Of a DNA stretch of 39,703 nt, positions 9,828 through 36,816 are shown piece by piece. How positions within the stretch are numbered: the first letter of the stretch is position 1; every line of letters begins with the position of its first letter. The stretch spans positions 1-39,703 of the IMG/VR virus record IMGVR_UViG_3300030450_003652; one strand, written 5' to 3'. The notes beneath the pieces are model-generated. The model was given only the letters and a program-made list of their open reading frames with translations, ran no database searches and was not told where the DNA came from. The position numbers and the translations under genes were made by a program. The stretch is from a virus (lineage: Duplodnaviria > Caudoviricetes).

Positions 9828-10415
9828 ATGAGATCTATCCACAATTATATTATATCCACTCAAAACAGATACAATAATAAAATTAATATTAATAAAAAAG
9901 AATTAATATTAAATACAGAAATTAATGAAAGAGATCATATTTTTGTAAATAGAATTGCAACTGTTAAGTCTATACCTTTAGATATAAAATCCCCTATTCA
10001 AATAGGAGATGAAATTATTGTGCATCACAATGTATTTAGAAAATGGATTGATGTTAGAGGTGAAGAACAAAATTCTCGTAATTTTTTAAGTGAAGATACA
10101 TATTTTGTAGCTCCAGATCAAGTATTTGCGTATAAAAATAATGATGAATGGAAAGCTACTGATGGTTATTGTTTTGTAAAGCCAATTTATAAAGATGATA
10201 AATGGGCTCTTAAAACAGACGAAAATTTAAAAGGTGAGTTAATATATAGTGATAGTAATTTGGATGCTTTAAACGTGCTCTGTGGAGACGTAGTGGGCTT
10301 TACACCAGATTCTGAGTACGAATTCACTATAGAAAATCAAAAATTGTACCGTATTTTATCAAATCATATAACAATTAATTATGGATCGCAGAGAAAAAGT
10401 AATTTCAGCAGCTGA
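9828..10415 (+). CDS. GroES-like (co-chaperonin) protein, apparently two tandem GroES-like units
   Basis: ATVKSIP...IQIGDEIIVH and CFVKP...GELIY...GDVVGF...EFTIENQKLY both resemble the GroES G-x-V...V-x-x-GD-x-V pattern. Confidence 0.6.
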   Translation: MRSIHNYIISTQNRYNNKININKKELILNTEINERDHIFVNRIATVKSIPLDIKSPIQIGDEIIVHHNVFRKWIDVRGEEQNSRNFLSEDTYFVAPDQVFAYKNNDEWKATDGYCFVKPIYKDDKWALKTDENLKGELIYSDSNLDALNVLCGDVVGFTPDSEYEFTIENQKLYRILSNHITINYGSQRKSNFSS

Positions 10416-10626
10416 TAAAGCTCTAATAGAACTTGAAAAAGTTATTAGACAAACAATAGATTTAGTTGAATTAGACCCAGAAAAAGCTAAAACAGCAGCT
10501 CAAGCAAAATGGGTGGCTATTGAAGATTCTTTAAAAATTATAGAAAAAATTGAAGAATTATCAGATAAAAAAGAAAACAAAAAAGAAAATAAAACTTTTT
10601 TGGGAGTAGAAAATAGAATAAAATAA
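10381..10626 (+). CDS. Putative terminase small subunit
   Basis: 81 aa helical, charged protein; stop overlaps the terL start (TAATG); assignment is positional. Confidence 0.45.
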   Translation: MDRREKVISAADKALIELEKVIRQTIDLVELDPEKAKTAAQAKWVAIEDSLKIIEKIEELSDKKENKKENKTFLGVENRIK

Positions 10627-12863
10627 TGTATAAACAAACGTTATATAAGGTTCTAACCGATCATTTATCTAATAAAACAGTAAAGAATTGGAATAGACAT
10701 AAAAAATTTACTCAGGGCTATAATGAAGACTTAGATTGTGTTATAATTAGTAAAGATGGTACATTAGGAGAAATATATGAGATTCAAGGTCTTAAGGTAG
10801 GATTACCTCAAACTCCAAAAATTATTGATGGTAAAGATTTAAAAAAATCTGATCAATATTTTAAAAAATTGGAAAAACCACAATCTCTTAAAAGAATAAA
10901 AACAATATATGATTTTCAAAGTTATCCAGAAAAAATTAAAGATCAATATTATGAATATATTGATAGGGAGTTTAATTATAGGAATGACGGGTATTGGTTC
11001 ATGTGCAACGGCGAACCATGTTACATTACAGGATCGCACTATATCTATCTCAACTGGACCAAAATCGACGTGGGATCACCGGACTTTAGACAAGCAAATA
11101 GAATTTTTTTCTACTTTTGGGAAGCGTGCAAATTGGATAGAAGATGTTACGGAATGTGCTATCTTAAGAATAGACGGTCTGGCTTTAGCTTCATGGCATC
11201 AGCTGAATGTGTCAACCAGGCTACAACTTCAAAGGATTCTAGGTTTGGGATCTTATCTAAGACTGGAGCAGATGCTAAGAAGATGTTCACAGATAAGGTT
11301 GTACCGATCTCAACTAATTATCCCTTTTTCTTTAAGCCAATACAAGATGGTATGGAAAGACCCAAAACGGAATTATCCTATAAAGTTCCCTCGAGAAGAC
11401 TCACGAGAAACACCATTAAATTTACCTCCGCGGGAGAAGCCGAGGAGATACAAGAAGGATTGGATACAACCATCGATTGGAAAAATACCGGGGACAACTC
11501 GTACGATGGGGAGAAGTTACAACTCCTCGTTCATGACGAATCGGGTAAATGGGAACGTCCCGACAATATCCTCAACAACTGGAGGGTCACAAAAACGTGC
11601 CTCAGGCTCGGATCCAAAATAGTTGGTAAATGCATGATGGGATCCACTTCTAATGCTTTAGAAAAAGGAGGGGATAATTTTAAAAAACTTTATTATAATT
11701 CAGATGTCACAAATAGAAATCGCAATGGCCAGACTACAAGTGGATTATATGCTTTGTTCATACCTATGGAGTGGGGATTCGAAGGGTTTATCGATAAGTA
11801 TGGGTTCCCTGTATTCAATACACCACCAAAACCGGTTGAGGGAATTGATGGTGAATACATCTCTACGGGAGTCATTGACCACTGGGAAAACGAAGTTGAA
11901 GGTTTAAAAAAAGACTCAGATGCTTTAAATGAATATTATAGGCAATTTCCAAGATCGGAAAAACATGCATTTAGAGATGAGACTTTTAATTCTTTGTTCA
12001 ATTTAACTAAAATTTATGAACAAATTGATTTTAATGAAGAAATGACTAAAAAAGGTCATATAGTTAAAGGAAATTTTGGCTGGAGGAATGGTATAAAAGA
12101 TAGTAAAGTAATTTGGCAACCAAATATTAAAGGAAGATTTTTACTTTCTTGGATACCACCAGATAATTTACAAAACAATATAATAAATAAAAATGGTATA
12201 AGCTATCCGGGTAATGATGGATTAGGAGCATTTGGATGTGACCCTTATGATATTTCAGGAACAGTAGGTGGAGGTGGTTCTAAAGGGGCTTTACATGGAT
12301 TAACAACATTTTCAATGGACCCTAGTGTGCCCAGTACTAAATTCTTTTTAGAATATATAGCAAGACCGCAAACTGCAGAAATATTTTTTGAAGATGTATT
12401 AATGGCATGTGTATTTTACGGAATGCCATTATTAGCAGAAAACAATAAACCTAGATTGTTGTATCATTTTAAAAGAAGAGGTTATAGGGGATTTTCAATG
12501 AATCGCCCTGACAAATTAAGATCTAAATTGTCAAAAACCGAATTAGAATTAGGGGGTATACCAAATACCTCAGAAGATATAAAACAAGCTCATGCGGCAG
12601 CAATAGAATCTTACATAGAAGAATATGTAGGTAAAATAAGAGAAAATCATGGTAATATGTTTTTCCAAAGAACATTAGAAGATTGGGCTAGATTTGATAT
12701 AAATCGAAGAACAGCTCACGATGCATCTATTAGTAGCGGTTTAGCACTAATGGCTTGCAGAAAACATATGTATAGACCAAATATAGAAAGAACAGTAAAA
12801 AAACTTGATTTTATGTTTTCACACTATAATAATGAAGGATCAAGAAGTCAGTTAATAAAATAA
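10626..12863 (+). CDS. terL: Terminase large subunit
   Basis: Walker A-like LKNRRSGFS, Walker B LLVHDESGK, motif III MMGSTSN, RNase H-like GCDPYD and HDASISSG; precedes the portal. Confidence 0.92.
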   Translation: MYKQTLYKVLTDHLSNKTVKNWNRHKKFTQGYNEDLDCVIISKDGTLGEIYEIQGLKVGLPQTPKIIDGKDLKKSDQYFKKLEKPQSLKRIKTIYDFQSYPEKIKDQYYEYIDREFNYRNDGYWFMCNGEPCYITGSHYIYLNWTKIDVGSPDFRQANRIFFYFWEACKLDRRCYGMCYLKNRRSGFSFMASAECVNQATTSKDSRFGILSKTGADAKKMFTDKVVPISTNYPFFFKPIQDGMERPKTELSYKVPSRRLTRNTIKFTSAGEAEEIQEGLDTTIDWKNTGDNSYDGEKLQLLVHDESGKWERPDNILNNWRVTKTCLRLGSKIVGKCMMGSTSNALEKGGDNFKKLYYNSDVTNRNRNGQTTSGLYALFIPMEWGFEGFIDKYGFPVFNTPPKPVEGIDGEYISTGVIDHWENEVEGLKKDSDALNEYYRQFPRSEKHAFRDETFNSLFNLTKIYEQIDFNEEMTKKGHIVKGNFGWRNGIKDSKVIWQPNIKGRFLLSWIPPDNLQNNIINKNGISYPGNDGLGAFGCDPYDISGTVGGGGSKGALHGLTTFSMDPSVPSTKFFLEYIARPQTAEIFFEDVLMACVFYGMPLLAENNKPRLLYHFKRRGYRGFSMNRPDKLRSKLSKTELELGGIPNTSEDIKQAHAAAIESYIEEYVGKIRENHGNMFFQRTLEDWARFDINRRTAHDASISSGLALMACRKHMYRPNIERTVKKLDFMFSHYNNEGSRSQLIK
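10909..11622 (+). CDS. Candidate overprinted gene (+1 frame of terL), lipoprotein-like
   Basis: 237 stop-free codons in the +1 frame; basic N-region, hydrophobic stretch and IGS-C lipobox (Cys codon 11002-11004); terL synonymous codons turn C/G-ending across this span. Confidence 0.6.
   Translation: MIFKVIQKKLKINIMNILIGSLIIGMTGIGSCATANHVTLQDRTISISTGPKSTWDHRTLDKQIEFFSTFGKRANWIEDVTECAILRIDGLALASWHQLNVSTRLQLQRILGLGSYLRLEQMLRRCSQIRLYRSQLIIPFSLSQYKMVWKDPKRNYPIKFPREDSRETPLNLPPREKPRRYKKDWIQPSIGKIPGTTRTMGRSYNSSFMTNRVNGNVPTISSTTGGSQKRASGSDPK
11704..11907 (+). CDS. Second candidate overprinted ORF (+1 frame of terL)
   Basis: 67 aa; frame open from about 11663; GC-elevated synonymous sites at about 11760-11900. 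Confidence 0.35.
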   Translation: MSQIEIAMARLQVDYMLCSYLWSGDSKGLSISMGSLYSIHHQNRLRELMVNTSLRESLTTGKTKLKV

Positions 12864-12865
12864 AT

Positions 12866-15283
12866 ATGGCGACACAAACAACAGGACAATATAGTCAATT
12901 TCCAAGCCAAGCAGTCTCAGATGCTGAAAAGCAGTCTTTAGATTATGGGTTTAGAGTAGCTAAAGCTATTGAGCAAGATTGGTTTAATAGAGATGGTAAT
13001 ATTGGAAGATTTTATCAGTCTGCTAATGAATATCATAACCTTAGATTATACGCAAGAGGTGAACAGGCTATTGGAAAATATAAAGATGAATTTTCAGTTA
13101 ATGGGGATTTATCGTATTTAAATTTAGATTGGAAACCAGTTCCAATTATTCCTAAATTTGTAGATATTGTTGTTAACGGTATGCAAGATAGATTATTTTC
13201 TATTAAAGCTGTTGGTCAAGATCCTATTGCTACAGATAGAAAAACTAAATTTGTAAAAGGAGTTGAAAATGATATAGCTAGTCAAGCCTTATTAGATGTA
13301 ATGGAAGGAGAGTTAGGATCAGCCCCTAGAGCAATTCCTAAAGATCAGCTGCCTTTAAATTCAGAAGAGTTTCAACTATATATGAATTTAAATTATAAAC
13401 AAGGTATTGAAATTGCTGAAGAAGAGGGTATAAATAATGTAATGCTTTCTAATAAATATGATGAAATAAAAAGACGCATAGATTATGATTTAGCAGTATT
13501 AGGTATTGGAGCAGGTAAATGTACATTTAATAATACGGATGGTATAAAGCTTGATTATGTAGATCCTGCTAATTTAATATGGTCTTATACAGAAGATCCT
13601 AATTTTAATGATTGTTATTATTTTGGAGAAGTTAAAAGAGTTAAACTTAATGAACTTAAAAAACAATTTCCTGGAGTAACTAATGAAGAATTCCAAGAAT
13701 TAGCTAAACAAAGTTACGATTGGACATCTTATAATGATTACACTAATGCTTCATGGAATAATGACAATAATATAGTTTCTGTATTGTATTTTAATTGGAA
13801 AACTTGGGAAAATAATGTTTATAAAATAAAAGAAACCTCTACTGGTGCAAGCAAAGCTATTAAAAAAGATGATAATTTTGATCCACCAAAAGATAAAAGA
13901 AATAGGTTTGAAAGAGTGGCTGAAGCTGTAGAAACAGTTTATGAAGGAGTTCTTATATTGGGGACTAATACTATGTTACAATGGGAAAAGGCTTCTAATA
14001 TAGTAAGACCTAATTCTAATACTAATTTAGTATTGATGAATTATGTAGTAAGTGCCCCTAGAATATATAGAGGGGCTATTAATTCATTAGTTGCTAAAAT
14101 GATGCCTTATGCGGATTTAATTCAATTAACGCATTTAAAAATGCAACAAGCAATACAAAAAATGACTCCATCGGGGGTATATTTAGATGCAGACGGGTTA
14201 GCTGAAATTGATTTAGGAAATGGTACAAATTATAATCCACAAGAAGCATTAAATATGTATTTTCAAACGGGATCTATTATTGGTAGATCGTTAACCACAG
14301 AAGGTGATCAAAATTTAGGAAAAATTCCTATTACAGAATTACCTGGTGGCGGTGGGAATCAAATTCAAATTTTAGTTACTGCATACAATCAATATCTTCA
14401 AATGATTAGAGATATAACTGGATTAAATGAAGCAAGAGATGGATCAGATCCAGACCCTAATTCATTAGTAGGTGTTCAAAAATTAGCAGCGGCTAATAGT
14501 AATGTGGCTACAAGACATATACTAGATAGCAGTATGAATATTACTACGCGTTTAGCTCAATGCATCGCGTTAAGATTTAAAGATGCTTTAGAATACCATC
14601 CTACTAAAGAAGCCTTTATTGGAGCATTAGGACCATTTTCAGTAGGATCGTTGGAAGAATTAAAAAATTTACATCTTCATGATTTTGGTATATTCTTAGA
14701 GTTAGAGCCTGATGAAGAAGAAAGAACTTTATTAGAAGCTAATATACAAATGGCTTTATCAAAAGAAAATATATTTTTAGAAGATGCAATTGATGTAAGA
14801 GAAATAAAAAATATACAATTAGCAAATCAACTGCTAAAATTTAGAAGAATTAAAAAACAACAAGTTGATCAGCAACAAGCTCAAGCTGCAAGTGCTGCCC
14901 AAGCAGAAGCACAAGGGCAAGCACAAATTCAAGTGGAAAATGCTAAAGCGCAGGCCGAACAAGTTAAAACTGAATCTAAAATTCAATATAGAAAAGCAGA
15001 TATAGAATTTGAAATTAAAAAGCTTGAAGTTGAGGCAAGATCAAAAAGAGAATTAATGCAGTTTGAATATGATTTAAATGTTAAATTAAAACAATTAGAA
15101 CTGCAAGCTCAAAAAGAGCTAGTAGATAAACAATCAGAAACTCAAAAAGAGGTAGCGAATGTTAAGGCTTCAGTAAGTAGTATTGCTGGGCCACCTGATA
15201 CATCTAAACCTAAAAAATCTTTTGAATCTAAAGGAAATGATGTTTTAGGAGGTATCGATTTATCAAGGTTTGAACCTAGATAA
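12866..15283 (+). CDS. Portal protein
   Basis: 805 aa directly after terL; LDWKPVPIIPKFVDIVVNG, IRDITGLNEARDG, long C-terminal coiled coil; size typical of crAss-related portals. Confidence 0.85.
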   Translation: MATQTTGQYSQFPSQAVSDAEKQSLDYGFRVAKAIEQDWFNRDGNIGRFYQSANEYHNLRLYARGEQAIGKYKDEFSVNGDLSYLNLDWKPVPIIPKFVDIVVNGMQDRLFSIKAVGQDPIATDRKTKFVKGVENDIASQALLDVMEGELGSAPRAIPKDQLPLNSEEFQLYMNLNYKQGIEIAEEEGINNVMLSNKYDEIKRRIDYDLAVLGIGAGKCTFNNTDGIKLDYVDPANLIWSYTEDPNFNDCYYFGEVKRVKLNELKKQFPGVTNEEFQELAKQSYDWTSYNDYTNASWNNDNNIVSVLYFNWKTWENNVYKIKETSTGASKAIKKDDNFDPPKDKRNRFERVAEAVETVYEGVLILGTNTMLQWEKASNIVRPNSNTNLVLMNYVVSAPRIYRGAINSLVAKMMPYADLIQLTHLKMQQAIQKMTPSGVYLDADGLAEIDLGNGTNYNPQEALNMYFQTGSIIGRSLTTEGDQNLGKIPITELPGGGGNQIQILVTAYNQYLQMIRDITGLNEARDGSDPDPNSLVGVQKLAAANSNVATRHILDSSMNITTRLAQCIALRFKDALEYHPTKEAFIGALGPFSVGSLEELKNLHLHDFGIFLELEPDEEERTLLEANIQMALSKENIFLEDAIDVREIKNIQLANQLLKFRRIKKQQVDQQQAQAASAAQAEAQGQAQIQVENAKAQAEQVKTESKIQYRKADIEFEIKKLEVEARSKRELMQFEYDLNVKLKQLELQAQKELVDKQSETQKEVANVKASVSSIAGPPDTSKPKKSFESKGNDVLGGIDLSRFEPR

Positions 15284-15309
15284 AAAAAATTAATTTATTA
15301 TATTATATT

Positions 15310-16659
15310 ATGGAAGAACAACAAACAGAAATTAAAGAAGCTCCAGAAGCTAATGAACCTACACAATCTAAAGAAGCAATTGTATTAGAGGAAGCTGTTA
15401 AAAGCGGTGAGGTAGATAAGGCTTTTGGATTACAAGACGATGGTGTCTATAAAATAAATTTAGATAAGCCACCCACGGAGGTTAAAAAGGAACCTAAAGC
15501 TAAAACAAAAAAAGCAGAACCTAAAGTAGAAAAAGATGCCGTTCAAAAACAAGAAACAAAGGATAGCAATGTGCCTATCGAAAAATCCGAAGACTCGCCA
15601 AGTGTGCAAAAATTGGATAAAGAAATACGGGGATCCGCTAAGGAAGAAAAAGAAACCGTTAAAACCGAGGAAAAAGTATTAGATAAAACAAATGAACCTA
15701 ATACTAATAGTAGTGTTCCAGATTCACCACTTGAATTAATAGCTGAAGAGGAACCTAAAAAAAATGTAAAAACGGAAGAAAAAGAAAAAGAAACTCCAAT
15801 TTTACAAGAAAAAGAAATTAAGGAAGAAAAGGTAGTTCTTCCAGAAAATGTTGATAAACTAGTTAAATTTTTAGAAGATACAGGGGGAACAATTGAAGAT
15901 TATGTAAATTTAAATAGAGATGTTTCTAAAATGGATAATATTAGTTTATTAAGAGAATACTATTCAAAAACAAAACCTCATTTAGATGCAGAAGATATTG
16001 ATTTTTTATTTAATAAAAATTTTGCATATGATGGGGAAGCGGATGATCCGCAAGATATAAAAGCTAAGAAATTAGCTTTTAAAGAGGAATTATTTAATGC
16101 TCAAAATTATTTCACTTCTAATAAGGAAAAGTATTATGCTGATCTTAAGTTAAGAAAGCAAGATACTTTAACACCTGAACAAAATGAAGCAATAGAGTTT
16201 TATAATAATTACAAACAGCAACAACAGGGAGCTGAGGAAAAAGCAAACAATTTTAAAAAGGAAACAGATAAAGTTTTTAACGATAATTTCAAAGGTTTTG
16301 ATTTTAAGGTCGGAGAAAACAAATACCGTTATAAAGTTGAAAATCCTCAAAAAGTTAAAGAATTTCAATCTTCTATTAATAATTGGATAGGGACTCATTT
16401 AGATAATAAAGGTATTATAAAAGATACTGCTTTTTATCATAAATCTTTATTTGCTGCACAAAACGCAGATAAAATAGCTAATCACTTTTATGAGCAAGGC
16501 CGTGCTGATGCTATTAGAGAAAGTGCTAAACAAGCTAAAAATATAAAAATGGACCCTAGATCAGATAATGCCACTGTGCCAAAAACTAATACTTCTGGCA
16601 TACGTGCTGTTTCATCCAATGATGACAATCCCAACAAGTTGCGAATTAAATGGAAATAA
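15310..16659 (+). CDS. Putative capsid scaffolding protein
   Basis: 449 aa, very E/K-rich N-half; TGGTIEDYVNLNRD, IANHFYEQGRADA; lies between portal and major capsid genes. Confidence 0.7.
   Translation: MEEQQTEIKEAPEANEPTQSKEAIVLEEAVKSGEVDKAFGLQDDGVYKINLDKPPTEVKKEPKAKTKKAEPKVEKDAVQKQETKDSNVPIEKSEDSPSVQKLDKEIRGSAKEEKETVKTEEKVLDKTNEPNTNSSVPDSPLELIAEEEPKKNVKTEEKEKETPILQEKEIKEEKVVLPENVDKLVKFLEDTGGTIEDYVNLNRDVSKMDNISLLREYYSKTKPHLDAEDIDFLFNKNFAYDGEADDPQDIKAKKLAFKEELFNAQNYFTSNKEKYYADLKLRKQDTLTPEQNEAIEFYNNYKQQQQGAEEKANNFKKETDKVFNDNFKGFDFKVGENKYRYKVENPQKVKEFQSSINNWIGTHLDNKGIIKDTAFYHKSLFAAQNADKIANHFYEQGRADAIRESAKQAKNIKMDPRSDNATVPKTNTSGIRAVSSNDDNPNKLRIKWK
15536..15682 (+). CDS. Candidate overprinted small basic protein (+1 frame of scaffold gene)
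   Basis: Hand translation MPFKNKKQRIAMCLSKNPKTRQVCKNWIKKYGDPLRKKKKPLKPRKKY* (48 aa); A-rich leader; CpG-rich island limited to this span; resembles recalled MPFKS-x-x-QRR...P...W-x-K-x-Y phage peptides. Confidence 0.6.
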   Translation: MPFKNKKQRIAMCLSKNPKTRQVCKNWIKKYGDPLRKKKKPLKPRKKY

Positions 16660-16682: not shown

Positions 16683-18194
16683 ATGGCTTTTACAGCTGGG
16701 GTTCCGGCCCCTTTACAACCAACCCAAACTAAAAATATGTATGCTGGGAATTATATAAATTTCACAGATACAAATTTTGCACAATGGGGACAACAATTCT
16801 TACCTGATGTATACGAAAAAGAAGTAGAAAGATATGGAAACAGAACTATCGGTGCTTTCCTTCGTATGGTATCAGCAGAAATGCCTTCTGCGTCTGACCA
16901 AATAATTTGGACTGAACAAGGAAGATTACACACTAGATATACACAGGCTTTACACGTAGCAAATAATGCTGCTACAACAGCTTCTACTGCTAACGCAAGT
17001 ACAGCAGGAGGTGTAACTCAGCACTATTATGTTAATCCTGCTAATCAGCCTTCAAGTTTAGGCTCAACTACGCAAGCAACTACTGAGGTTAACTTCAGAC
17101 TTGGACAAACAGTTATGATCCAAAAAGAAGCAGCTACAGGTAATATTGGAGCAGCAGGAGCACCTGTGGTTAAAGGTATAGTAACATTCGTATCAGCACA
17201 ACACTTTTCTATAAAAAGTTATACAGGAACACCTGCGGTTGCTGCTGGCGATAAATTTACAGTAATAGCTTATGGATCTGAATTTGCAAAAGGAACTTCA
17301 AACTTCACTGGTAAACTTGATCCTAGCTACGCTACTTTTTCTAATTCACCAATTATCTTAAAAGAAAATTACTCTATCAATGGTTCTGACACTGCTCAGA
17401 TCGGTTGGATTGAAGTTACTTCTGAAAATGGAGCTAATGGGTACTTATGGTATATGAAATCAGAGCATGAAAATAGACTTCGTTGGGAAGACTATTTAGA
17501 AATGTCTATGGTTGAAGGTGTTTTACAAAATGGTACTGGTGCTGTTTTAGGATATGGATCAACTCAAACTGCTAAAGGAACTGAAGGTTTCTTCGCATCT
17601 TTAGAAGCAAGAGGAAATGTATATTCTGGATTTGGAGCACAAGCTGCCGGTGGTGGTGCACTTACTGACTTTGATGCTGTACTTAAACAATTAGATAAGC
17701 AAGGGGCTATCGAAGAAAATATGCTTTTCTTAAATAGAAACCTTTCTTTAGAAATTGATGATATCCTAGCTCAACAAAATGGAGCTTATGCTGGTGGTAC
17801 TTCTTTTGGAGTATTTAATAACAGTGAGGATATGGCGCTTAATTTAGGATTTACTGGTTATAGAAGAGGTTCTTATGACTTCTATAAAACTGACTGGAAA
17901 TATCTTAATGATTGGTCAACAAGAGGTGGTTTTGGAGATATCGAAGGAGTATTAATTCCTGCAGGTACTTCAACTGTATATGATCAGCAATTAGGTCAAA
18001 ATATTAAAAGACCTTTCTTACATGTTCGATACAGAGCTTCTGAAGTTGATAACAGAAAAAATAAATCTTGGATCACTGGATCTGTAGGTGGAGCTGTTAC
18101 AACTGATGTTGATGAAATGAGAATCAATTACTTAAGTGAAAGATGTCTTATTACACAAGCGGCTAATAATTTCGTATTATTTAAAGACGCGTAA
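16683..18194 (+). CDS. Major capsid protein
   Basis: 503 aa; QQFLPDVYEKEVERYGNRT, DQIIWTEQGRLH, LNLGFTGYRRGSYDFYKTDWKYLND, YLSERCL; high-expression-like codon bias; followed by a strong hairpin. Confidence 0.88.
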   Translation: MAFTAGVPAPLQPTQTKNMYAGNYINFTDTNFAQWGQQFLPDVYEKEVERYGNRTIGAFLRMVSAEMPSASDQIIWTEQGRLHTRYTQALHVANNAATTASTANASTAGGVTQHYYVNPANQPSSLGSTTQATTEVNFRLGQTVMIQKEAATGNIGAAGAPVVKGIVTFVSAQHFSIKSYTGTPAVAAGDKFTVIAYGSEFAKGTSNFTGKLDPSYATFSNSPIILKENYSINGSDTAQIGWIEVTSENGANGYLWYMKSEHENRLRWEDYLEMSMVEGVLQNGTGAVLGYGSTQTAKGTEGFFASLEARGNVYSGFGAQAAGGGALTDFDAVLKQLDKQGAIEENMLFLNRNLSLEIDDILAQQNGAYAGGTSFGVFNNSEDMALNLGFTGYRRGSYDFYKTDWKYLNDWSTRGGFGDIEGVLIPAGTSTVYDQQLGQNIKRPFLHVRYRASEVDNRKNKSWITGSVGGAVTTDVDEMRINYLSERCLITQAANNFVLFKDA

Positions 18195-18207: not shown

Positions 18208-18246
18208 AGAATACAGGCCCTTCGGGGCCTAGTGTTCTTATTTTAT
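18208..18246 (+). terminator. Intrinsic terminator / stabilising hairpin after the capsid gene
   Basis: agaatac-aggccc-TTCG-gggcct-a-gtgttct, cUUCGg tetraloop, followed by T-rich tattttat. Confidence 0.8.
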
Positions 18247-18257
18247 ATTATTTTATC

Positions 18258-28633: not shown

Positions 28634-28662
28634 TATAAAAAGAATTAAAAAATATTATATAT

Positions 28663-31600
28663 ATGTTTGAATGGAATGGGCAACAGTTCACTTTAGATCA
28701 AGTATTAAAATCTGCAGAAGAAGCAGGCCTTAGCTTTGAGGAATATAAGGAAAAATATGGTATAATTGAGGTTGAAGATAAAGAACCAGTTTCTGATTTT
28801 CAATATAATGGTAAATCTTTTACTTTTGATCAAGTAGACAATGCCGCAAAGGAGGCCAACTTGAGTTTTAATGACTATGTACAAACATATGGCATCGAAA
28901 CACCTAAAGAGGTTGAAGTTGTTGGAGAAAGATATCCTAAAGCAAAAGAAGAATCCAAAGTTCCATATGCTCCTCAAGAGGAAATTGTTGGGCCTAGCAC
29001 TCAATCACGAGAGTGGTTGGAACAACAACAAACAGATCTTTTAGATTACGAAGAAAATCTTATTCCTGAAGCAGAAGAATTATTTTCGCCTGATTGGGTT
29101 GAAGATAATCAAGTATATGTGCCTAGCACAGGACCAGTTGCTATTGGGGGAATAGCTGCTAATACAACCGGGGGCGGGGTCTATATAGATCCAGTGAACA
29201 AGGGAAGAACTGAAGCAATTGAAGAGGCTAAAAAATTATTAAATGAACAAAATGGCGGAACAAATTTAGTAGAACCATCTGAAGAAGAAATTTTAGAAAC
29301 TGCTAAAAATATTTGGCTTAATAAAAAACAAGAAAATCTAGAGGTTGATTTTGCAGATCATTATTTACGTAAAAATGCAGCACTTGATTGGGGTGATTTA
29401 AAAACATATGCTTCTATAGCTTCTCCATACATAATGCCCACTTTAAATCCTGAAATGAAAGCATTTAAAGAAAGGCAAGCTACTCTTGCTAAAGGAGATA
29501 AAAAATTTGCGCAAGAAAAAGTACAAAAAAATAAATTAGATCTTAATAAACTAAGCACTAAAGTAAAAACTAATGAATTACAAGCTATTAATTTAGCTCA
29601 AGGTGATTATAAAACCCAAGAAGACTTCGACGAAGCCAAAAAACAACTTGCAAATATAGCTTTAGAAAACGAAGCTATTATTAAAAAAAGTGAATATATT
29701 TTTGATGATTTAAAAGCTAATTCTAAAGAAATAGGTAAATATGATGAATATCTTGATGTAATAAAAAGAGATTATAGTTTTTCAGGTATAGCTTTAGGGT
29801 CGCTTACTGCATCTACTATAGAATTAGTTAATGGAGGGTTAGCTATTCCGAGATATTTAAAAACTGCTGCGGATAATTTAGCAAGAGGAATTACTGACAA
29901 TAAATATGATATGCCAGATTGGGTGTTTGCTTTAGCTGGCCCCGCTTTTAATCTTTTAGCTAGTGAGGAAACTAAAGATGTTAATGATTTCTTGGATAAT
30001 GTTTCTGAAAATATTAGGGGTACTTTTGCAAAAAATCAAGAGGTAACAGACATAGATAGCCTAGGTGGTGTTGCAAGTTGGATAGCGCAATTAATTGGTA
30101 ATCAAGCTCCAATAATGGCAACTATGATGTCTATGCCTACATATTCTTTAACAGCGTTAGGGGCTTCAGCTGCAGGTGGTAAATTTCTAGAAATGGAAAA
30201 AGAAATGGGTTTACCGGGCGGGCCAACTTATAGTGGTCTTGAATTGTTATTAGCTCCAGCTATAGTAGGGGGAGCTGAATATCTTTCAGAAAAAATAACC
30301 TTAGGGCAGGTGAAAGGCGTAATGAAGGCTGTTAAAGGCGATCAATCTATTATTGAGGCAGTAAAAAGATATCTTACAAATGATTACCTTAGGTGGACTA
30401 AAGACATGTTCCAAGAAGGTGGTTCAGAAGTTGCGGCAACTTTAGCTGAAAACATGACTGATAAGTATCTATTAGACAAAGATGTTGAATTAACTAGAGG
30501 GCTAGCTGATTCCTTTGCAAGTGGTGCTGTAATGAGTGGATTTATATATAAAGCCCCATTGGCTGGGAGAGCTTTAAGTAAAGTATTTTGGGGTGAAGAT
30601 GTAAGAAATCAAATTCAAACTGGTAATCAATTAATTAAAGAGTTAAATAATGAACTTAATAATGATAATTTAACGGAAACTGAAAGAAAAGACATCTTAA
30701 ATAATATTGCTGAAATCGATGCTAAGCAAAAGAAGATAATGCGAAATGCTAATGAAAGCTTTGATAATGCTACTACTACAGAGAAAAAAAGGCTTTTTAA
30801 AATATATGATTTACAAAATAACATTAAGAGAAGGGCTATAAAAATAGCTAATAACACTAAGCTTAGTGAAAAAAATAGAAAAAAAATGATTGATATCCAG
30901 CAAAGAAAATGGGATGGCTATCAAGATGAAAAAAATTCTATATTAATAAGATTAAGCGAAAAGAATTTTGATCCTCAAACTTTTTCAATAGAAGAGTATG
31001 AAAATAATGTTACTAAAGGGAAAATGGGTCGTAATGAATATATAGACAAACAAATCCAAACATTATCTAATACTTTATTAAATTTACAAGAGCGTAGAAA
31101 AAAAGCTACTACTGCTGAAGAAATAAAATTATTAGATTTAAAAATAAAAAATGTTCAAAATAAAATAAAATATTTAGTACCTGAAAAATCAGGATTTTTT
31201 AGCATTATCCCAACAACTATAAGGAAAGCTAACTCTATAAAAGAATTAAATGAAGCTTTTATTACTAAGTCTGCTGAATTAAGTGATGCATTAAAATCTA
31301 AAAAAATAACACCAACTGAGTATAATAAACAATACAAAAGACTTAAAAATAGTTTTGATAAAAAAAGAAATAGTTTTATAGAAAAAGTTGATAAAACTAA
31401 AGGCGAATATACTGAATTACAAAAATTATATGATTCAACTATAGACAAAGAAGGGAAATTACCTACAACGCAAAGAGGCCAAAATAAATTTGTTAATGAA
31501 TTTAATAAAATTGCAGCACCAATTTTTGAAAAAATAGCTCAAAGATTATATGATAGAACATCTAAAGATAAAGTTGGAGGTTTAACAAGAAAAAATTTTA

Positions 31601-34600
31601 TTAAAGGTTTACAATCTGAAGCTTGGAAAATTTTAGAAGAGGAGTTTGATCCTAGTTTACAAACTTTAGATAAATTTATTAGCAATAGATTAAATTTAAG
31701 AGCTAATAGATTATTTGGCGAGGATACAGGCAGAAATGATGAATTTACAGAAGAGTTAACTGATAAAATTTCTCAAACAATTGTTGAAGAAATTGAGGAA
31801 GAAAATGAAGGAAATAAAATAATAGAAACTAGTAAGCTTTTAAATTTACCTAAAAATATAACTAAAAAACTTAAAGCTAGTATTCCTACTATCTTATCTA
31901 CTTTAAAAAGTAAAATTGATTCTAGAAAATTTAAAGGAGAAATAAGCAAGGCTTTTAAAGATTTGTTATATGGAGATCTAAAAGAATTTTTTGGTAAAGA
32001 TAAAAAAGGAAATAAGAGATTTACAGATTTTATAACTAAAAATACTAAAGCTTTATATGATACACTAACAGAAGAAAGCATGAGAATGGCCCGTAATAAT
32101 AAGACCGGGGTAAATCCTTTTGTTGAAGCTGGATTTTTAATTGAAAAAGATGGTGAATTAGTAAAAGCTGCTTTTGAAAATATTGATCAACAAGCATTCA
32201 TAGATTATTATACTGCTAAAGATAAAGCAGCAAATACTATGTCTGATCGTAGAATGAATTTAATAGAAGCTGTAGCCTCCTCTATTGGGTCTGCAGAAGC
32301 AATAAATGCATTAGCTACAGATGCTGATATTAAAAATAAATTTTTAGAACAACAAACCAAAGAACTTGAAAAAGCTGCTAAAGGTTTAAGTTTATTAGAA
32401 TCATATGCTCGTAATATATTCCAAAAAATTACTAAAAAAATTGAAAAAGAATTTGCTAGATATGGGTTTACCCGTTGGAGTACTTTAGCGTTAACGTATG
32501 GATTTAACGATATTAATTTAAATAATGCTAAGGAGAGAGAAGCTTTTTTAGAAAATTTAGTTAAAACAGGATTAACTAAATTATTACCAGCTAGTTTATT
32601 TAGAAGTTTTCAAGGTGTTAGTAAACCTAAAATATTTATAGAATCTGACGGATTAAAATACGTAAAAAACCTTGATGGGGAATTGTTATTAAAAAAGACA
32701 TATGAAACCCTTTCAAAAAAACAAAAAAAAGAGCAAGGTTTTGGTAATATAGAAAGAGACCATGACAGGCATGTATTTTTTAAAAACGCCGCCGAAGCTG
32801 ATGCTTGGATTAAAGAGGTGGGAATAGAAAATTTTGCCAAAGATCCTATTATTGATAAAGCATTAAAGAAAAGCGCTTATACTAGTAAAATAAAGGGGAA
32901 AACTGTTCTTACAAAAGTAAATTGGAAAGAAGAAGATAATAAATTAGTGGCATTAGAAAAAATATTTGATATTTTTCAAGAGTACATGCTTGACAATGGT
33001 AAAGTAAATAAAAAGAACGCTTCTATAGTATCTGCTTTGTTAAAATCTTCTCCATCGTGGCAAGGGCATTTTGTTAGAAAACTAGCTCCAAGAGGATTTA
33101 CTAATTCAAGTAAATTATTAGATGATTTAGGAAATAGACTATTTGTAGAAGAACATACTTTACCCGCTTCTGCTGTAGCTAAATATCTATTTGAGCAAGC
33201 TATTAATGGAACAGTAAAAAATAATTTTGATTTAATCAAAAAAAATTATTTTCAAGGGCCTTTATTAAAGACATCTGATGATAAATTATCTGGAATTGGT
33301 GTTGATGGAAAACCTTTTACATATAAAGAGTCTACACCATCTGGTTGGATGTTAACAGATAATATTTGGGCTAGATATTTTAATGCTAATGTAAATAATA
33401 CGCGTGGTGGTATAGATCCCAATGTTATTATTTTAAGAAACGGTAAAACTGTTGCCCAAGAATTTAATGTTCAATCTGATGGAACTATAACGCCCGATGT
33501 TAAACAATTGCAACAAGAAGGTATCGCTGAACAAACAGGGGACCAAGTAGAAAATTTACTTGATAGGGCTATAGCTAAATTAACTGAGCTTACAGGTTCA
33601 CAAGGCACATTACAAATGAATTTAGCTGCTGTTCCTATCCATTTATTAACAGGTGGATTAAGAGCCGTTAAATTGGCATATCAAGGAGGGAAAAGCTTAA
33701 GTCAAGCTATTAGTGCAGGATATAATAAAGTAAAAAATTATATGACTGAAACAGAATGGGCTGAATTTGTTGGTGTTTCTGTTCAAGAAGTAAGAAATGA
33801 AAAAAATCCTGCTCAAGTTAAATTGGCCATTCTTTCAGAAAAAGGTGTTGCTCAAATTCAGGAACAATCAAGAAAAACTGATAATGCTTTATTAAAAGAG
33901 TTTGGAATTGATATTGACGGATTAAGTACTGATGAAATTGTTGAAAAATTAAATATACTTAGGAAAGCTAAAAGCGAAGCTTCAAATCCAAAAAATCCAA
34001 CTAAGAAGGCTAGAGTATTTGATTTTGACGACACGCTGGCTAAAACTAATTCTAAGGTACTTTACACGCTCCCAGATGGAACGGAAGGTAATTTAAATGC
34101 TACAGAGTTCGCGGAACAATACGAGTCCTTAAAAGAATCCGGTGCAACTTTTGATTATTCTGAGTTTAATAAAGTAAAAGACGGCACTAAAGGTCCATTA
34201 GCTACATTAGCTAAAAGATTTACGGAGGCATTAGGTGATAGAGATGTATTTGTATTAACAGCACGCCCAGCGGAAGCAGCGGCAGCTATACAAGAATTTT
34301 TACGAAATACTTTAAATATTAGTATTCCACTAAAAAATATATCTGGAATAGAAAATGGAACTCCCGGCGCTAAAGCTATGTGGATTGCTGAAAAAGTTTC
34401 AGAAGGTTATAATGACGTTTTCTTTGCCGATGATTCCAAACCTAATGTTGAAGCTGTTGAAAAAATGTTAACCGATTTAGGTGTAACAAATAGAGTTCAA
34501 CAAGCTAAAGAAGATGGCCAGAAAACTTTAGAAGACGAAATGGATTCTTTGATTAGAACTAATAAACCTTCTAAGTTTGGTAGAATATTAAATAAATTAA

Positions 34601-36816
34601 ATATTTATATTCCGCCTGGAGCTGATGATTTTGCTGGTTTATTATCTTATTTTTTAGGCAGCGGTAAAACAGGCGAACAACAACAAAAATGGTTCCAAGA
34701 AAATTTATTAGATCCATTTGCTAAGGGGATTGACGCATGGACTGCAGCAAAAGTTTCATTAGCTGAAGATTATAAAGCATTAAAGAAAAGATTTAAAAAT
34801 AAAAAATTATTAGCCGAAAAGGTTTTAGGAGGATTATATACTAAAGAGCAAGCTGTTAGAGCTTATCTATATAATAAAGCTGGACAAGATTTAGGTTTAA
34901 ATAAAGCTGATACCGAAGATCTAATAGCTTTAGTTGAGGGCGATGCTAAACTTAAAGCTTTTGCTGAAGAATTATCTAAAATAACTAAATTAGATAATGG
35001 ATATCCTAATATTACTAAAGAATGGTTGGGCGGTAATATTGATACAGATATGGCTAATGCTGCCAACACATCTTTAAGAGATATATTTTTACAAGATTTT
35101 ATAAATAATAAAAATCAGATTTTTTCTCCACAAAATTTAAAATTAATAAAACAAGCATATGGTAATGATTTTACTAATGCATTGGAAAATATTTTAGAAA
35201 GAATGACTACGGGTATAAACCGTAAAAAGGGAAAAGATAAAGAATTTAATGCGGTAATGACCTGGATTAATCAATCCGTTGGTGCAGTGATGGCTATTAA
35301 TATGAGATCGGCAATTCTTCAGCAGTTATCTATTGTAAACTATACTAATTGGAGTTTTAATAATCCATTTATGATGGCAAAAGCAATGGCTAATGTTCCT
35401 CAATTTTTAAAAGATTATGTTAAAATATGGAACTCCCCATTTTTAAAAGAAAGAAGAGGGGGAATGGCTATTGAAGTCAATATGGCAGATATAGCAGATT
35501 CAAATCCAAGTAATTTATTCTTAAAATTAAATAAAAAACTACTTGAGTTAGGATTTAAGCCTACACAATGGGGTGATAGCAATGCTATATCCTTTGGAGG
35601 AGCTACTTGGTATAGAAACAGATTAAATCAATTACTTAAAGAAGGTACGATGACTGAGAAAGAAGCAGATGCTCAAGTTATGTTAGAGCTTCGTGAACTT
35701 TCTGAAGAGCACCAGCAATCTTCTAGACCAGATAGAATATCTAGACAACAATCCTCAGATATAGGTAGATTGATATTAGCTTTTGCTAACACGCCTTTAC
35801 AGCTTGCTAGATCGCATAAAAAAGCTATAGGTAATCTTATTTATAGAAGAGGCGATGCTAAAACAAATATGTCTAAAGCTATTTATTATGGAATGGCACA
35901 AAGTTTAATATTTGTAGCATTACAACAAGGATTATTTTCTTTATTAGCTGATGATGATGATGAAATGGATGAAAAAGAAAAAAGAAAGCTAGATTATGCT
36001 CTTCATGGTGTTATAGATGGTTTGCTTAGAGGGATAGGATTTGCAGGAGCAACAACTGCAGCTCTTAAAAGTTTGGCTATGGAATATTATTCCCAATATC
36101 AAAAAAGAAAAGAAGGTAAATATGTAAGAGATGGTGCTCTAAAATTGATTCAAAGAGGTCTTTCAATTTCGCCTCCACTTAGTAAAAAGATTGGGGATAT
36201 TGTTGAAGCACAAAAGTTTGAAACATGGAGACAATATAAAAACGATCCTTTTTATAAAGGATTTGCTGTAGCTAATTATGTATCAGGGTTAACAAATATA
36301 CCCGCAGACAGGGTATTTAAAAAGATTGAAAATTTGAAAGCTGCGTCTGATGACAGAACCGAAGCATGGCAATCTATATTTTTATCATTAGGATGGTCAC
36401 CTTATAATGTAGGCGTACAATGGCCTGAAATGCCTCCTAAGAAAACTAAGAAAAAAAGTACTACATCAAAGAAAAAAGTTAAAAAGAAAAAAGTAAAAAA
36501 GAAAAAAAGCCCTATAAAAATGGAATTACCTGAAGGAGTTTTAGGTAGAGCTAATAAAGACGGCACTATTGAAATTAAAAAAGGACTATCTAAAGAAAAA
36601 GAAGCGGAAGTAGAGGCCCATGAAAATGCCCATTTGCTTCAGTTCCAAACTGGGAAATTAGATTATAATGATGAATATATTAGATGGAAAAATCAACAAG
36701 CTTTAAGAACAGCTGATCGTAAAATCTTTTGGAATGGTAAATTATATAAAGAAGGGGATAGGGCTTTACCTTGGGAAATAGAAGCCAATAAATTAAGTAA
36801 ACAACGAACTGTATAA
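28663..36816 (+). CDS. Giant multidomain (polyvalent) internal virion protein with HAD phosphatase and C-terminal zincin domains
   Basis: 2717 aa; VFDFDDTL / VLTARP / K / FFADD HAD motifs (about 34003-34500); HENAH...LPWEIEAN zincin (36520-36816); hydrophobic Gly/Ala helices; duplicated N-terminal repeat. Confidence 0.7.
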   Translation: MFEWNGQQFTLDQVLKSAEEAGLSFEEYKEKYGIIEVEDKEPVSDFQYNGKSFTFDQVDNAAKEANLSFNDYVQTYGIETPKEVEVVGERYPKAKEESKVPYAPQEEIVGPSTQSREWLEQQQTDLLDYEENLIPEAEELFSPDWVEDNQVYVPSTGPVAIGGIAANTTGGGVYIDPVNKGRTEAIEEAKKLLNEQNGGTNLVEPSEEEILETAKNIWLNKKQENLEVDFADHYLRKNAALDWGDLKTYASIASPYIMPTLNPEMKAFKERQATLAKGDKKFAQEKVQKNKLDLNKLSTKVKTNELQAINLAQGDYKTQEDFDEAKKQLANIALENEAIIKKSEYIFDDLKANSKEIGKYDEYLDVIKRDYSFSGIALGSLTASTIELVNGGLAIPRYLKTAADNLARGITDNKYDMPDWVFALAGPAFNLLASEETKDVNDFLDNVSENIRGTFAKNQEVTDIDSLGGVASWIAQLIGNQAPIMATMMSMPTYSLTALGASAAGGKFLEMEKEMGLPGGPTYSGLELLLAPAIVGGAEYLSEKITLGQVKGVMKAVKGDQSIIEAVKRYLTNDYLRWTKDMFQEGGSEVAATLAENMTDKYLLDKDVELTRGLADSFASGAVMSGFIYKAPLAGRALSKVFWGEDVRNQIQTGNQLIKELNNELNNDNLTETERKDILNNIAEIDAKQKKIMRNANESFDNATTTEKKRLFKIYDLQNNIKRRAIKIANNTKLSEKNRKKMIDIQQRKWDGYQDEKNSILIRLSEKNFDPQTFSIEEYENNVTKGKMGRNEYIDKQIQTLSNTLLNLQERRKKATTAEEIKLLDLKIKNVQNKIKYLVPEKSGFFSIIPTTIRKANSIKELNEAFITKSAELSDALKSKKITPTEYNKQYKRLKNSFDKKRNSFIEKVDKTKGEYTELQKLYDSTIDKEGKLPTTQRGQNKFVNEFNKIAAPIFEKIAQRLYDRTSKDKVGGLTRKNFIKGLQSEAWKILEEEFDPSLQTLDKFISNRLNLRANRLFGEDTGRNDEFTEELTDKISQTIVEEIEEENEGNKIIETSKLLNLPKNITKKLKASIPTILSTLKSKIDSRKFKGEISKAFKDLLYGDLKEFFGKDKKGNKRFTDFITKNTKALYDTLTEESMRMARNNKTGVNPFVEAGFLIEKDGELVKAAFENIDQQAFIDYYTAKDKAANTMSDRRMNLIEAVASSIGSAEAINALATDADIKNKFLEQQTKELEKAAKGLSLLESYARNIFQKITKKIEKEFARYGFTRWSTLALTYGFNDINLNNAKEREAFLENLVKTGLTKLLPASLFRSFQGVSKPKIFIESDGLKYVKNLDGELLLKKTYETLSKKQKKEQGFGNIERDHDRHVFFKNAAEADAWIKEVGIENFAKDPIIDKALKKSAYTSKIKGKTVLTKVNWKEEDNKLVALEKIFDIFQEYMLDNGKVNKKNASIVSALLKSSPSWQGHFVRKLAPRGFTNSSKLLDDLGNRLFVEEHTLPASAVAKYLFEQAINGTVKNNFDLIKKNYFQGPLLKTSDDKLSGIGVDGKPFTYKESTPSGWMLTDNIWARYFNANVNNTRGGIDPNVIILRNGKTVAQEFNVQSDGTITPDVKQLQQEGIAEQTGDQVENLLDRAIAKLTELTGSQGTLQMNLAAVPIHLLTGGLRAVKLAYQGGKSLSQAISAGYNKVKNYMTETEWAEFVGVSVQEVRNEKNPAQVKLAILSEKGVAQIQEQSRKTDNALLKEFGIDIDGLSTDEIVEKLNILRKAKSEASNPKNPTKKARVFDFDDTLAKTNSKVLYTLPDGTEGNLNATEFAEQYESLKESGATFDYSEFNKVKDGTKGPLATLAKRFTEALGDRDVFVLTARPAEAAAAIQEFLRNTLNISIPLKNISGIENGTPGAKAMWIAEKVSEGYNDVFFADDSKPNVEAVEKMLTDLGVTNRVQQAKEDGQKTLEDEMDSLIRTNKPSKFGRILNKLNIYIPPGADDFAGLLSYFLGSGKTGEQQQKWFQENLLDPFAKGIDAWTAAKVSLAEDYKALKKRFKNKKLLAEKVLGGLYTKEQAVRAYLYNKAGQDLGLNKADTEDLIALVEGDAKLKAFAEELSKITKLDNGYPNITKEWLGGNIDTDMANAANTSLRDIFLQDFINNKNQIFSPQNLKLIKQAYGNDFTNALENILERMTTGINRKKGKDKEFNAVMTWINQSVGAVMAINMRSAILQQLSIVNYTNWSFNNPFMMAKAMANVPQFLKDYVKIWNSPFLKERRGGMAIEVNMADIADSNPSNLFLKLNKKLLELGFKPTQWGDSNAISFGGATWYRNRLNQLLKEGTMTEKEADAQVMLELRELSEEHQQSSRPDRISRQQSSDIGRLILAFANTPLQLARSHKKAIGNLIYRRGDAKTNMSKAIYYGMAQSLIFVALQQGLFSLLADDDDEMDEKEKRKLDYALHGVIDGLLRGIGFAGATTAALKSLAMEYYSQYQKRKEGKYVRDGALKLIQRGLSISPPLSKKIGDIVEAQKFETWRQYKNDPFYKGFAVANYVSGLTNIPADRVFKKIENLKAASDDRTEAWQSIFLSLGWSPYNVGVQWPEMPPKKTKKKSTTSKKKVKKKKVKKKKSPIKMELPEGVLGRANKDGTIEIKKGLSKEKEAEVEAHENAHLLQFQTGKLDYNDEYIRWKNQQALRTADRKIFWNGKLYKEGDRALPWEIEANKLSKQRTV

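Follow-up and report, generated by a model that had tools for sequence, protein, structure and literature searches.

Does a 48-residue reading frame that lies out of register inside an acidic, scaffold-like phage gene encode a protein of its own and, if so, what might this protein do and how did it come to lie there? The locus belongs to a 39.7-kb linear virus record, about 60% complete, the whole of which (39,703 nucleotides) was analysed and is called the window here. The closest deposited relatives of the window are MW202828, Maribacter phage Panino, the Flavobacterium elemo phages and the Cellulophaga phages of the phi38:1 kind, and because of these relatives the host is likely a Bacteroidetes bacterium. 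Matches to PHROG head families were obtained for the terminase, portal and capsid-like genes. The features that are referred to below are the following.

9828-10415: gene for a GroES-like co-chaperonin, adjoining the terminase gene
12866..15283, + strand: portal gene (phrog_6547, E 5e-131)
15310..16659, + strand: host gene, an ORF for an acidic 449-aa protein between the portal and major capsid genes
15523..15535, + strand: likely initiation region of the nested gene, without Shine-Dalgarno sequence, with A at -13, -12, -6 and -3, unpaired in the fold
15535..15546, + strand: scaffold codons GAT GCC GTT CAA (DAVQ), overlying the first four codons of the peptide (host-codon comparison)
15536..15682, + strand: nested gene, 48 aa and a TAG stop by translation, in the +1 frame of the 449-aa ORF
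16683..18194, + strand: likely major capsid gene, used for the tree (phrog_13704, virion structural protein, E 9e-92)
28663..36816, + strand: giant gene of 2717 aa (26% identity over 464 aa to elemo gp18, E 2e-9)

The 449-aa host protein can be subdivided into a low-complexity N-terminal linker and a core that is conserved from about residue 177. It has no match in Pfam or PHROG. The core is 37% identical to an elemo-phage protein labelled 'structural protein', and from its position and composition the gene at 15310-16659 is likely a scaffold gene. The likely capsid protein next to it is 40-49% identical to proteins from elemo, Panino and MW202828. Similar TAT-rich tracts can be observed at 15295-15309, 18240-18257 and 28645-28662, directly upstream of the scaffold gene, a 262-aa gene and the giant gene, respectively; possibly, these act as a late promoter or translation enhancer.

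The nested ORF begins at scaffold codon 76, and the translation given in the original prediction (48 aa, then TAG) is exact. The product would be a 5.9-kDa peptide with a net charge of +18 and a pI of 10.8, in which a module of roughly 33 aa with a helix-loop-helix layout is followed by a Lys-rich tail. The structure model (pLDDT 82) places helices at residues 6-13 and 18-31, followed by the basic tail; a hydrophobic signal, transmembrane segment or signal segment is not found in the peptide. It had also been claimed that an unusual codon signal is bounded by the ATG and the TAG. The rise itself is real, with 8 CpGs in the 148 nt within the ORF vs 13 in the 1202 nt outside (p=0.001) and a GC3 of 16/49 vs 60/401 (p=0.004), but the borders are not sharp, as three more CpGs lie upstream at 15405-15476. 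An ATG-initiated +1 ORF of at least 35 aa is also present in the first 130 codons of 9 of the 68 scaffolds without the gene. Since an open stretch of this length is thus common by chance, the case for a nested gene rests on comparison.

The comparison with stand-alone relatives is the most direct one. When a profile of 31 stand-alone copies only is run against the 943 six-frame segments of the window, the nested ORF ranks first (18.5 bits, E 9e-5), with 5.0 bits for the next-best segment and 7.4 for the best of 1000 shuffles; the likeness exceeds chance. The same profile reaches at least 20 bits for 24 of the 46 nested peptides, the window subtype being among the weaker ones. A single-sequence search with the 48-mer gives no match, and the family was reached by profiles only. 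With a 16-sequence profile and a cut-off of E<=0.001, 2,823 clusters were matched. Among the top 150, the module begins at residue 1 in 134, and 67 are proteins of at most 100 aa; the others are longer, and nearly all are without Pfam domains. Free-standing copies are annotated in Streptomyces phage FlowerPower (gp48) and in 023Pt_psg01, and occur unannotated in S-CBS2, C75C1 and P-RSP2. The module is conserved in phages of Streptomyces, cyanobacteria and Bacteroidetes alike. These homologues begin at the same Met as the nested ORF. The N-terminal M-P-F-x4-Q is invariant, and the mean net charge over 56 distinct peptides is +13, a few copies (e.g. L224) having acidic tails. The module also heads proteins of 200-700 aa in head modules, and a GG motif directly follows it in 77 of 80 long forms. 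In a sample of IMG/VR (4 of 64 parts scanned, one strict motif), 120 loci were found: 76 nested, all in the +1 frame, 8 starting longer ORFs and 36 classed as free, of which about 3 are probably contig-end cuts. One 81-aa database protein, P0113, shows the module running on into acidic, scaffold-like sequence, which may reflect either an indel from assembly or a true change of frame.

Outside this family, few leads were obtained. Searches of Pfam, NCBIfam, PDB sequences and Foldseek gave no significant match to the peptide or the family, and the best viral fold match to the peptide is an unnamed 57-aa protein (E 0.24). ArfA (PF03889) was rejected, since the window has no match to it at E<=10 and 0 of 45 members match it in Pfam at E<=10; DUF3008 (PF11450) was rejected likewise, as the window peptide has no match to it and none of the 45 members matches it in Pfam at E<=10. 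In the Atlas, the nearest clusters with a name bear DUF3008, at 0.86-0.87 (below 0.9), with DUF3008 on 14-15% of the members. A match to phrog_1375 at E<=0.1 is seen for 25 of the 45 members (best 1.6e-5) and not for the window peptide. The kinship to PHROG 1375 and DUF3008, both of unknown function, is distant at most. A literature search that excluded supplements and most subscription journals found no description of the family or of the overlap, so that a mention in a proteomics table is possible; the sole phage match for 'MPFKS' is an unrelated C-terminus.

The second comparison is that among the scaffold genes themselves. A +1 ORF of 40-54 aa that starts with MP[FY] is found at the D/N-A-V/I-Q motif in 78 of 78 scaffolds (77 loci from protein searches and the window). 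As one of the six search seeds carried the motif and many of the 77 loci are near-copies, homologues were resampled through the capsid gene. Among the complete scaffolds of the same N-terminal type obtained in this way, 26 of 36 have the gene, 9 are without it and 1 has a 22-aa remnant; the gene is dispensable. Two absences had been named beforehand as speaking against a gene, namely that of stand-alone homologues and that of the +1 start in homologous scaffold genes; the homologues and the conserved start were both found. When 114 representatives are placed in a capsid tree, the 46 carriers of the scaffold-nested gene all fall into two neighboring groups (5 and 50 rows), and none of the 59 remaining rows carries it in the scaffold. 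The carrier label needs 9 changes vs 36 for shuffled labels, the 55 rows not being resolved as one clade. In the L255 scaffold a stop cuts the nested ORF to 22 aa while the host motif is retained, which is likely a recent loss. A second, different basic peptide of 39-45 aa is +1-nested in the same scaffold linker in 7 of the 114 representatives, two of which are without the first peptide; its loci include L023:2048-2164, L094:3154-3273, L227:2417-2551 and L252:2400-2534. It does not occur in the window. Its matches to DUF7230 and YhfG are weak and below cut-off, and none of 10 tested sequences matches ArfA at E<=1.

The way in which the two frames change points in the same direction. Over the first three overlap codons, the host third positions are invariant in 95 of 95 distinct genes, and the host first positions vary (D/N, V/I). 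This set was selected by a pattern that includes the start, and a pairwise test is cleaner. In 32 disjoint pairs, the differences at host positions 1, 2 and 3 amount to 131, 40 and 25 within the overlap (896 codons), compared with 538, 323 and 1532 in the core (7320 codons). The pN/pS in these pairs is 0.13 for the +1 peptide frame and 2.24 for the overlapping host frame; as controls, the scaffold core gives 0.17 and the +1 frame of the core 1.3. These values indicate purifying selection on the +1 frame and not on the scaffold frame. The suggestion that the DAVQ motif of the scaffold is the shadow of MPFK is borne out as well: a DA(V/I)Q-type motif is missing in all 8 group members without the peptide and in 59 of 59 sister scaffolds, and where the motif occurs the host wobble is fixed and the host residues vary. 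The host frame still sets one rule on nested copies, which is the absence of stops. A T at the peptide wobble position before AA, AG or GA is found in 0 of 716 cases in nested copies vs 102 of 373 in free copies.

A start signal can also be recognized. Bacteroidetes initiate without Shine-Dalgarno pairing and favor A at -3, -6, -12 and -13, as outlined in PMC6847099. An A is found at these positions in 41, 44, 38 and 43 of 46 nested starts, respectively (linker control: 0.51, 0.51, 0.52 and 0.34), and all four are present in 30 of the 46 vs 115 of 3027 same-phase linker positions. The 46 starts are homologous and hence not independent observations, so that the pattern supports internal initiation but does not prove it. 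Public RNA runs (n=6) covered at most 19% of the scaffold-gene words, and the contigs from four runs miss the overlap. A promoter scan of 15000-16000, of a kind that excludes Bacteroidetes promoters, found 4 where 3.2 are expected, none of them on the + strand inside the scaffold gene. The stretch 15536-15682 is almost certainly a real protein-coding gene.

The scaffold is not the only host of this gene. Whole-genome searches of sister phages, reaching beyond the scaffold gene, yielded six inspected cases (MW202828, G002, G003, G008:C10, G009:C198 and elemo NC_055853) in which the peptide is +1-nested in the giant gene (2,000-3,900 aa). At the nested copy the giant gene reads D/N-A-V/I-Q, as the scaffold does. 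A further whole-genome match was found in G016, outside the six inspected cases. In elemo NC_055853, an unannotated 42-aa copy at 52379-52507 (L493:7401-7529) is nested at codon 1221 of gp18, and all 68 elemo records match the peptide. From the scaffolds alone, elemo and MW202828 were read as lacking the peptide, which is ruled out by the copies in their giant genes. The pattern of the nested form gave 116 loci, with 54 in the scaffold, 51 in the giant gene, 9 in unassigned hosts and 2 cut short. The giant gene of the window, a homologue of elemo gp18, is without a nested copy, and the sole family match in the record is the one at 15536. Six scaffold-type records, the window included, have one family match each, its position having been checked for the window only. 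In genome searches no copy was found in Panino, phi38:1, phi13:2, Gundel_1, G001 and G004, nor in four partial records or assemblies holding two loss lineages.

How the gene came to lie in both hosts can be approached from its DNA. The copy in the giant gene of MW202828 shares 86% identity over 99 nt with the scaffold copy L246, vs 78% with the nearest giant copy and 71% with the nearest free copy. Given this cross-host pair, the dual-coding block has likely moved between the two host genes. Mapping the giant label onto the peptide tree, which has only 44 columns, takes at least 3 changes on branches with strong support. In the phase that is used by the hosts, free copies contain 3.8 stops on average, and 1 of 27 is stop-free. 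The other phase is stop-free in 18 of 27, and no nested copy uses it. Together with the cross-host similarity, this stop pattern would fit one recoding followed by transfer better than many independent insertions. The original prediction called the peptide 'overprinted'; that it is so in the usual sense of a new gene on an old frame is doubtful: the nested frame is the conserved one, its relatives occur in unrelated phages, and the scaffold frame is unconstrained. De novo overprinting implies a younger nested frame without outside homologues, and here such homologues are found. The reverse history, with birth in the linker and later release, may also apply.

A portable dual-coding cassette is conceivable, at a likelihood that we would set a little under one half. 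Here, a widespread stand-alone gene would have been recoded once, so that its minus-one frame became a stop-free acidic linker, and then repeatedly exchanged by recombination between the scaffold and the giant gene in a large set of aquatic Bacteroidetes phages, where it would encode a conserved core peptide; elsewhere, the 33-residue module would serve as N-terminal anchor that targets the head. Read one base back, a Lys-rich gene would give Glu, Gln and Lys, which a disordered acidic linker could tolerate once the wobble bases that make stops were removed. The stop-free block could then recombine into another tolerant gene. If this were the case, an old gene would have been captured and transferred at this locus, which is the opposite of classical overprinting.

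Few cases of nested phage genes are known, and the usual explanation is that of new genes on old frames. The D protein of phiX174 is a scaffolding protein. Gene E is overprinted on gene D, with E as the de novo frame, and de novo overprinted proteins are described as usually lacking remote homologues (Pavesi 2021, PMC8227390). The present locus resembles E in D as a small out-of-frame gene nested in a phage scaffolding gene (putatively so here), and differs in that the nested frame is constrained and has thousands of homologue clusters. In the lambda Rz/Rz1 spanins a small gene is wholly embedded, in the +1 frame, in the flexible linker of a late gene, and is often missed by annotation (Kongari et al. 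2018, PMC6139136). The same can be observed in the window, where the nested gene lies wholly in the +1 frame of the flexible linker of a late gene; unlike Rz1, the peptide is no lipoprotein, and no pairing of it with the host protein is known. An embedded o-spanin of the Rz1 type was rejected, as the peptide has no hydrophobic signal and the host is a soluble acidic protein. In the spanin survey, no family is reported to mix embedded with overlapped or separated members (PMC6139136), unlike the peptide family, which is nested in two host genes and also free-standing. Giant cargo proteins of crAss-like phages are described, but no overlap is reported (PMC10136315). In the present case, it is the nested gene that is old and conserved, and its occurrence in two host genes and in free form provides a natural series for the origin and movement of overlaps. 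A large phage protein family has been missed by annotation, with 76 of the 120 sampled IMG/VR matches being nested. The elemo copy can be silenced in a way that leaves the host protein unaltered, so that the function of the family is directly testable in cultured phages.

As for this function, several small, basic and late phage proteins, such as phiX174 J and the T4 internal proteins, are proposed to accompany the packaged genome, and the T4 internal proteins use an N-terminal packaging tag. The peptide may be likened to them by function only, with no sequence or fold match to solved structures. The gene is widespread among phages and unannotated, and by its charge and gene context its product is putatively a DNA-binding peptide of the virion. 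The leading reading, which we hold tentatively and at slightly less than an even chance, is that of a late basic peptide that is packed in the head and binds nucleic acid without sequence preference. In this mechanism, host ribosomes would begin translation of the head-gene mRNA at the internal ATG via the A-rich Bacteroidetes signal, and the peptide would thereby be made alongside scaffold and capsid. The helix-loop-helix module and the Lys tail would contact the DNA backbone within the head, counterbalancing its charge. In the longer proteins, this module would act as N-terminal anchor.

As in virion core peptides, the predicted product is small, strongly basic and encoded among late genes, and both host genes of the nested peptide are head or virion genes. 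For 24 of the 31 listed free or N-terminal loci, the neighbors were scanned. Of these loci, 13 lie near portal, terminase, capsid, scaffold or virion-structural genes, another 4 near GroES, and the remaining 7 near other or unknown genes. Two of these 7 loci and a third locus are long forms that lie, along with portal and prohead protease, in T4-like head modules. The near-constancy of the module in phages whose capsids are unrelated would favor a universal ligand, e.g. nucleic acid, over a single phage protein. GroES is also a frequent neighbor of free peptide copies in other phages. Clusters of small, very basic genes (45-130 aa, net charge up to +39) are found in three related genomes, namely G003 (2.1-3.4 and 25.4-26.2 kb), G011 (1.7-2.4 kb) and G012 (48.5-51.1 kb), and possibly form a wider set of core or late peptides; there are none in the window, which is itself partial.

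Against head-packed nucleic-acid binding speak the frequent loss of the gene and the invariant M-P-F-x4-Q, which looks more like a docking motif or the ligand of a specific pocket than like part of a plain polycation. Neighbors without a link to the head also occur (DNA polymerase, ferredoxin, lysis genes). An SP-x-K packaging motif shared by the peptide tails and virion proteins was tried and rejected, the loose pattern occurring in 27 of 46 tails and in only scattered proteins of five genomes. A complex prediction for the capsid protein with the peptide scored 0.00 and was counted neither for nor against.

The late-gene context fits a virion protein and a late host-acting protein alike. The peptide could bind a conserved host machine, likeliest the ribosome or another RNA-protein complex, and tune late translation in the cytoplasm without being a virion component. 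This would agree with its high conservation across phages of very distant hosts, with a small, basic product with an invariant N-terminal motif, and with the second type of nested basic peptide in the same linker (7/114 representatives). The reading is nevertheless unlikely, though the foremost of the alternatives: no ArfA or ribosomal-protein match was obtained apart from one member at Ribosomal_S17 (E 0.027 only), NCBIfam gave no relevant match, and it is hard to see why such a module would sit on the N-terminus of 200-700-aa head-module proteins.

Alternatively, the module may be a specific capsid- or portal-docking motif, i.e. an encapsidation tag or assembly cofactor, with the basic tail being secondary. 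It is always N-terminal, on cargo of widely differing lengths, the GG directly after it in 77 of 80 long forms would suit such a tag, and several free copies lie directly after the portal gene or before the scaffold and capsid genes. However, T7-like, T4-like, Streptomyces and Bacteroidetes phages share the module in nearly unchanged form while their capsid and portal proteins belong to different PHROG families, and the gene has repeatedly been lost, which makes this explanation distinctly unlikely.

It is improbable that a membrane-active or otherwise host-toxic cationic peptide is encoded that aids lysis or host shut-off. The helices of the model are predicted to be amphipathic and basic, FlowerPower gp48 is flanked by a peptidase and a holin and L314 by holin and endolysin, and 2 of 45 members match Ponericin (best E 0.00085). 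Yet neither a transmembrane nor a signal segment is present in the peptide, head genes make up most of the contexts, and the window encodes its own holin and amidase away from the nested ORF.

Finally, the +1 frame is very improbably no separate gene at all, whether as the shadow of a DAVQ required by the scaffold or as a part reached by frameshifting to give a scaffold-peptide fusion, because the restriction of host codon 2 to V or I, the A-rich runs on both sides of the ORF and the fusion seen in P0113 are outweighed by the host-frame pN/pS of 2.24, by an ATG that is retained while the host residue switches between D and N, by the initiation signal at this internal ATG, by a +1-frame stop two codons upstream of it in the window and by stand-alone homologues that share the start Met.

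Besides the head-gene locus, the window contains a candidate second nested gene. A 237-aa ORF at 10909-11622 (+ strand) lies in the +1 frame within the terminase gene (10626-12863). Over this ORF the GC3 is about 0.4-0.6 vs 0.05-0.2 in most of the remaining terminase gene. Its N-terminus contains a hydrophobic stretch and a Cys and is lipoprotein-signal-like, which may be the shadow of conserved terminase residues. Among 80 relatives, the 13 closest ones (78-86% identical) have this frame open over 123-235 aa, in 12 cases from the same ATG, and in most of the more distant ones it is disrupted.
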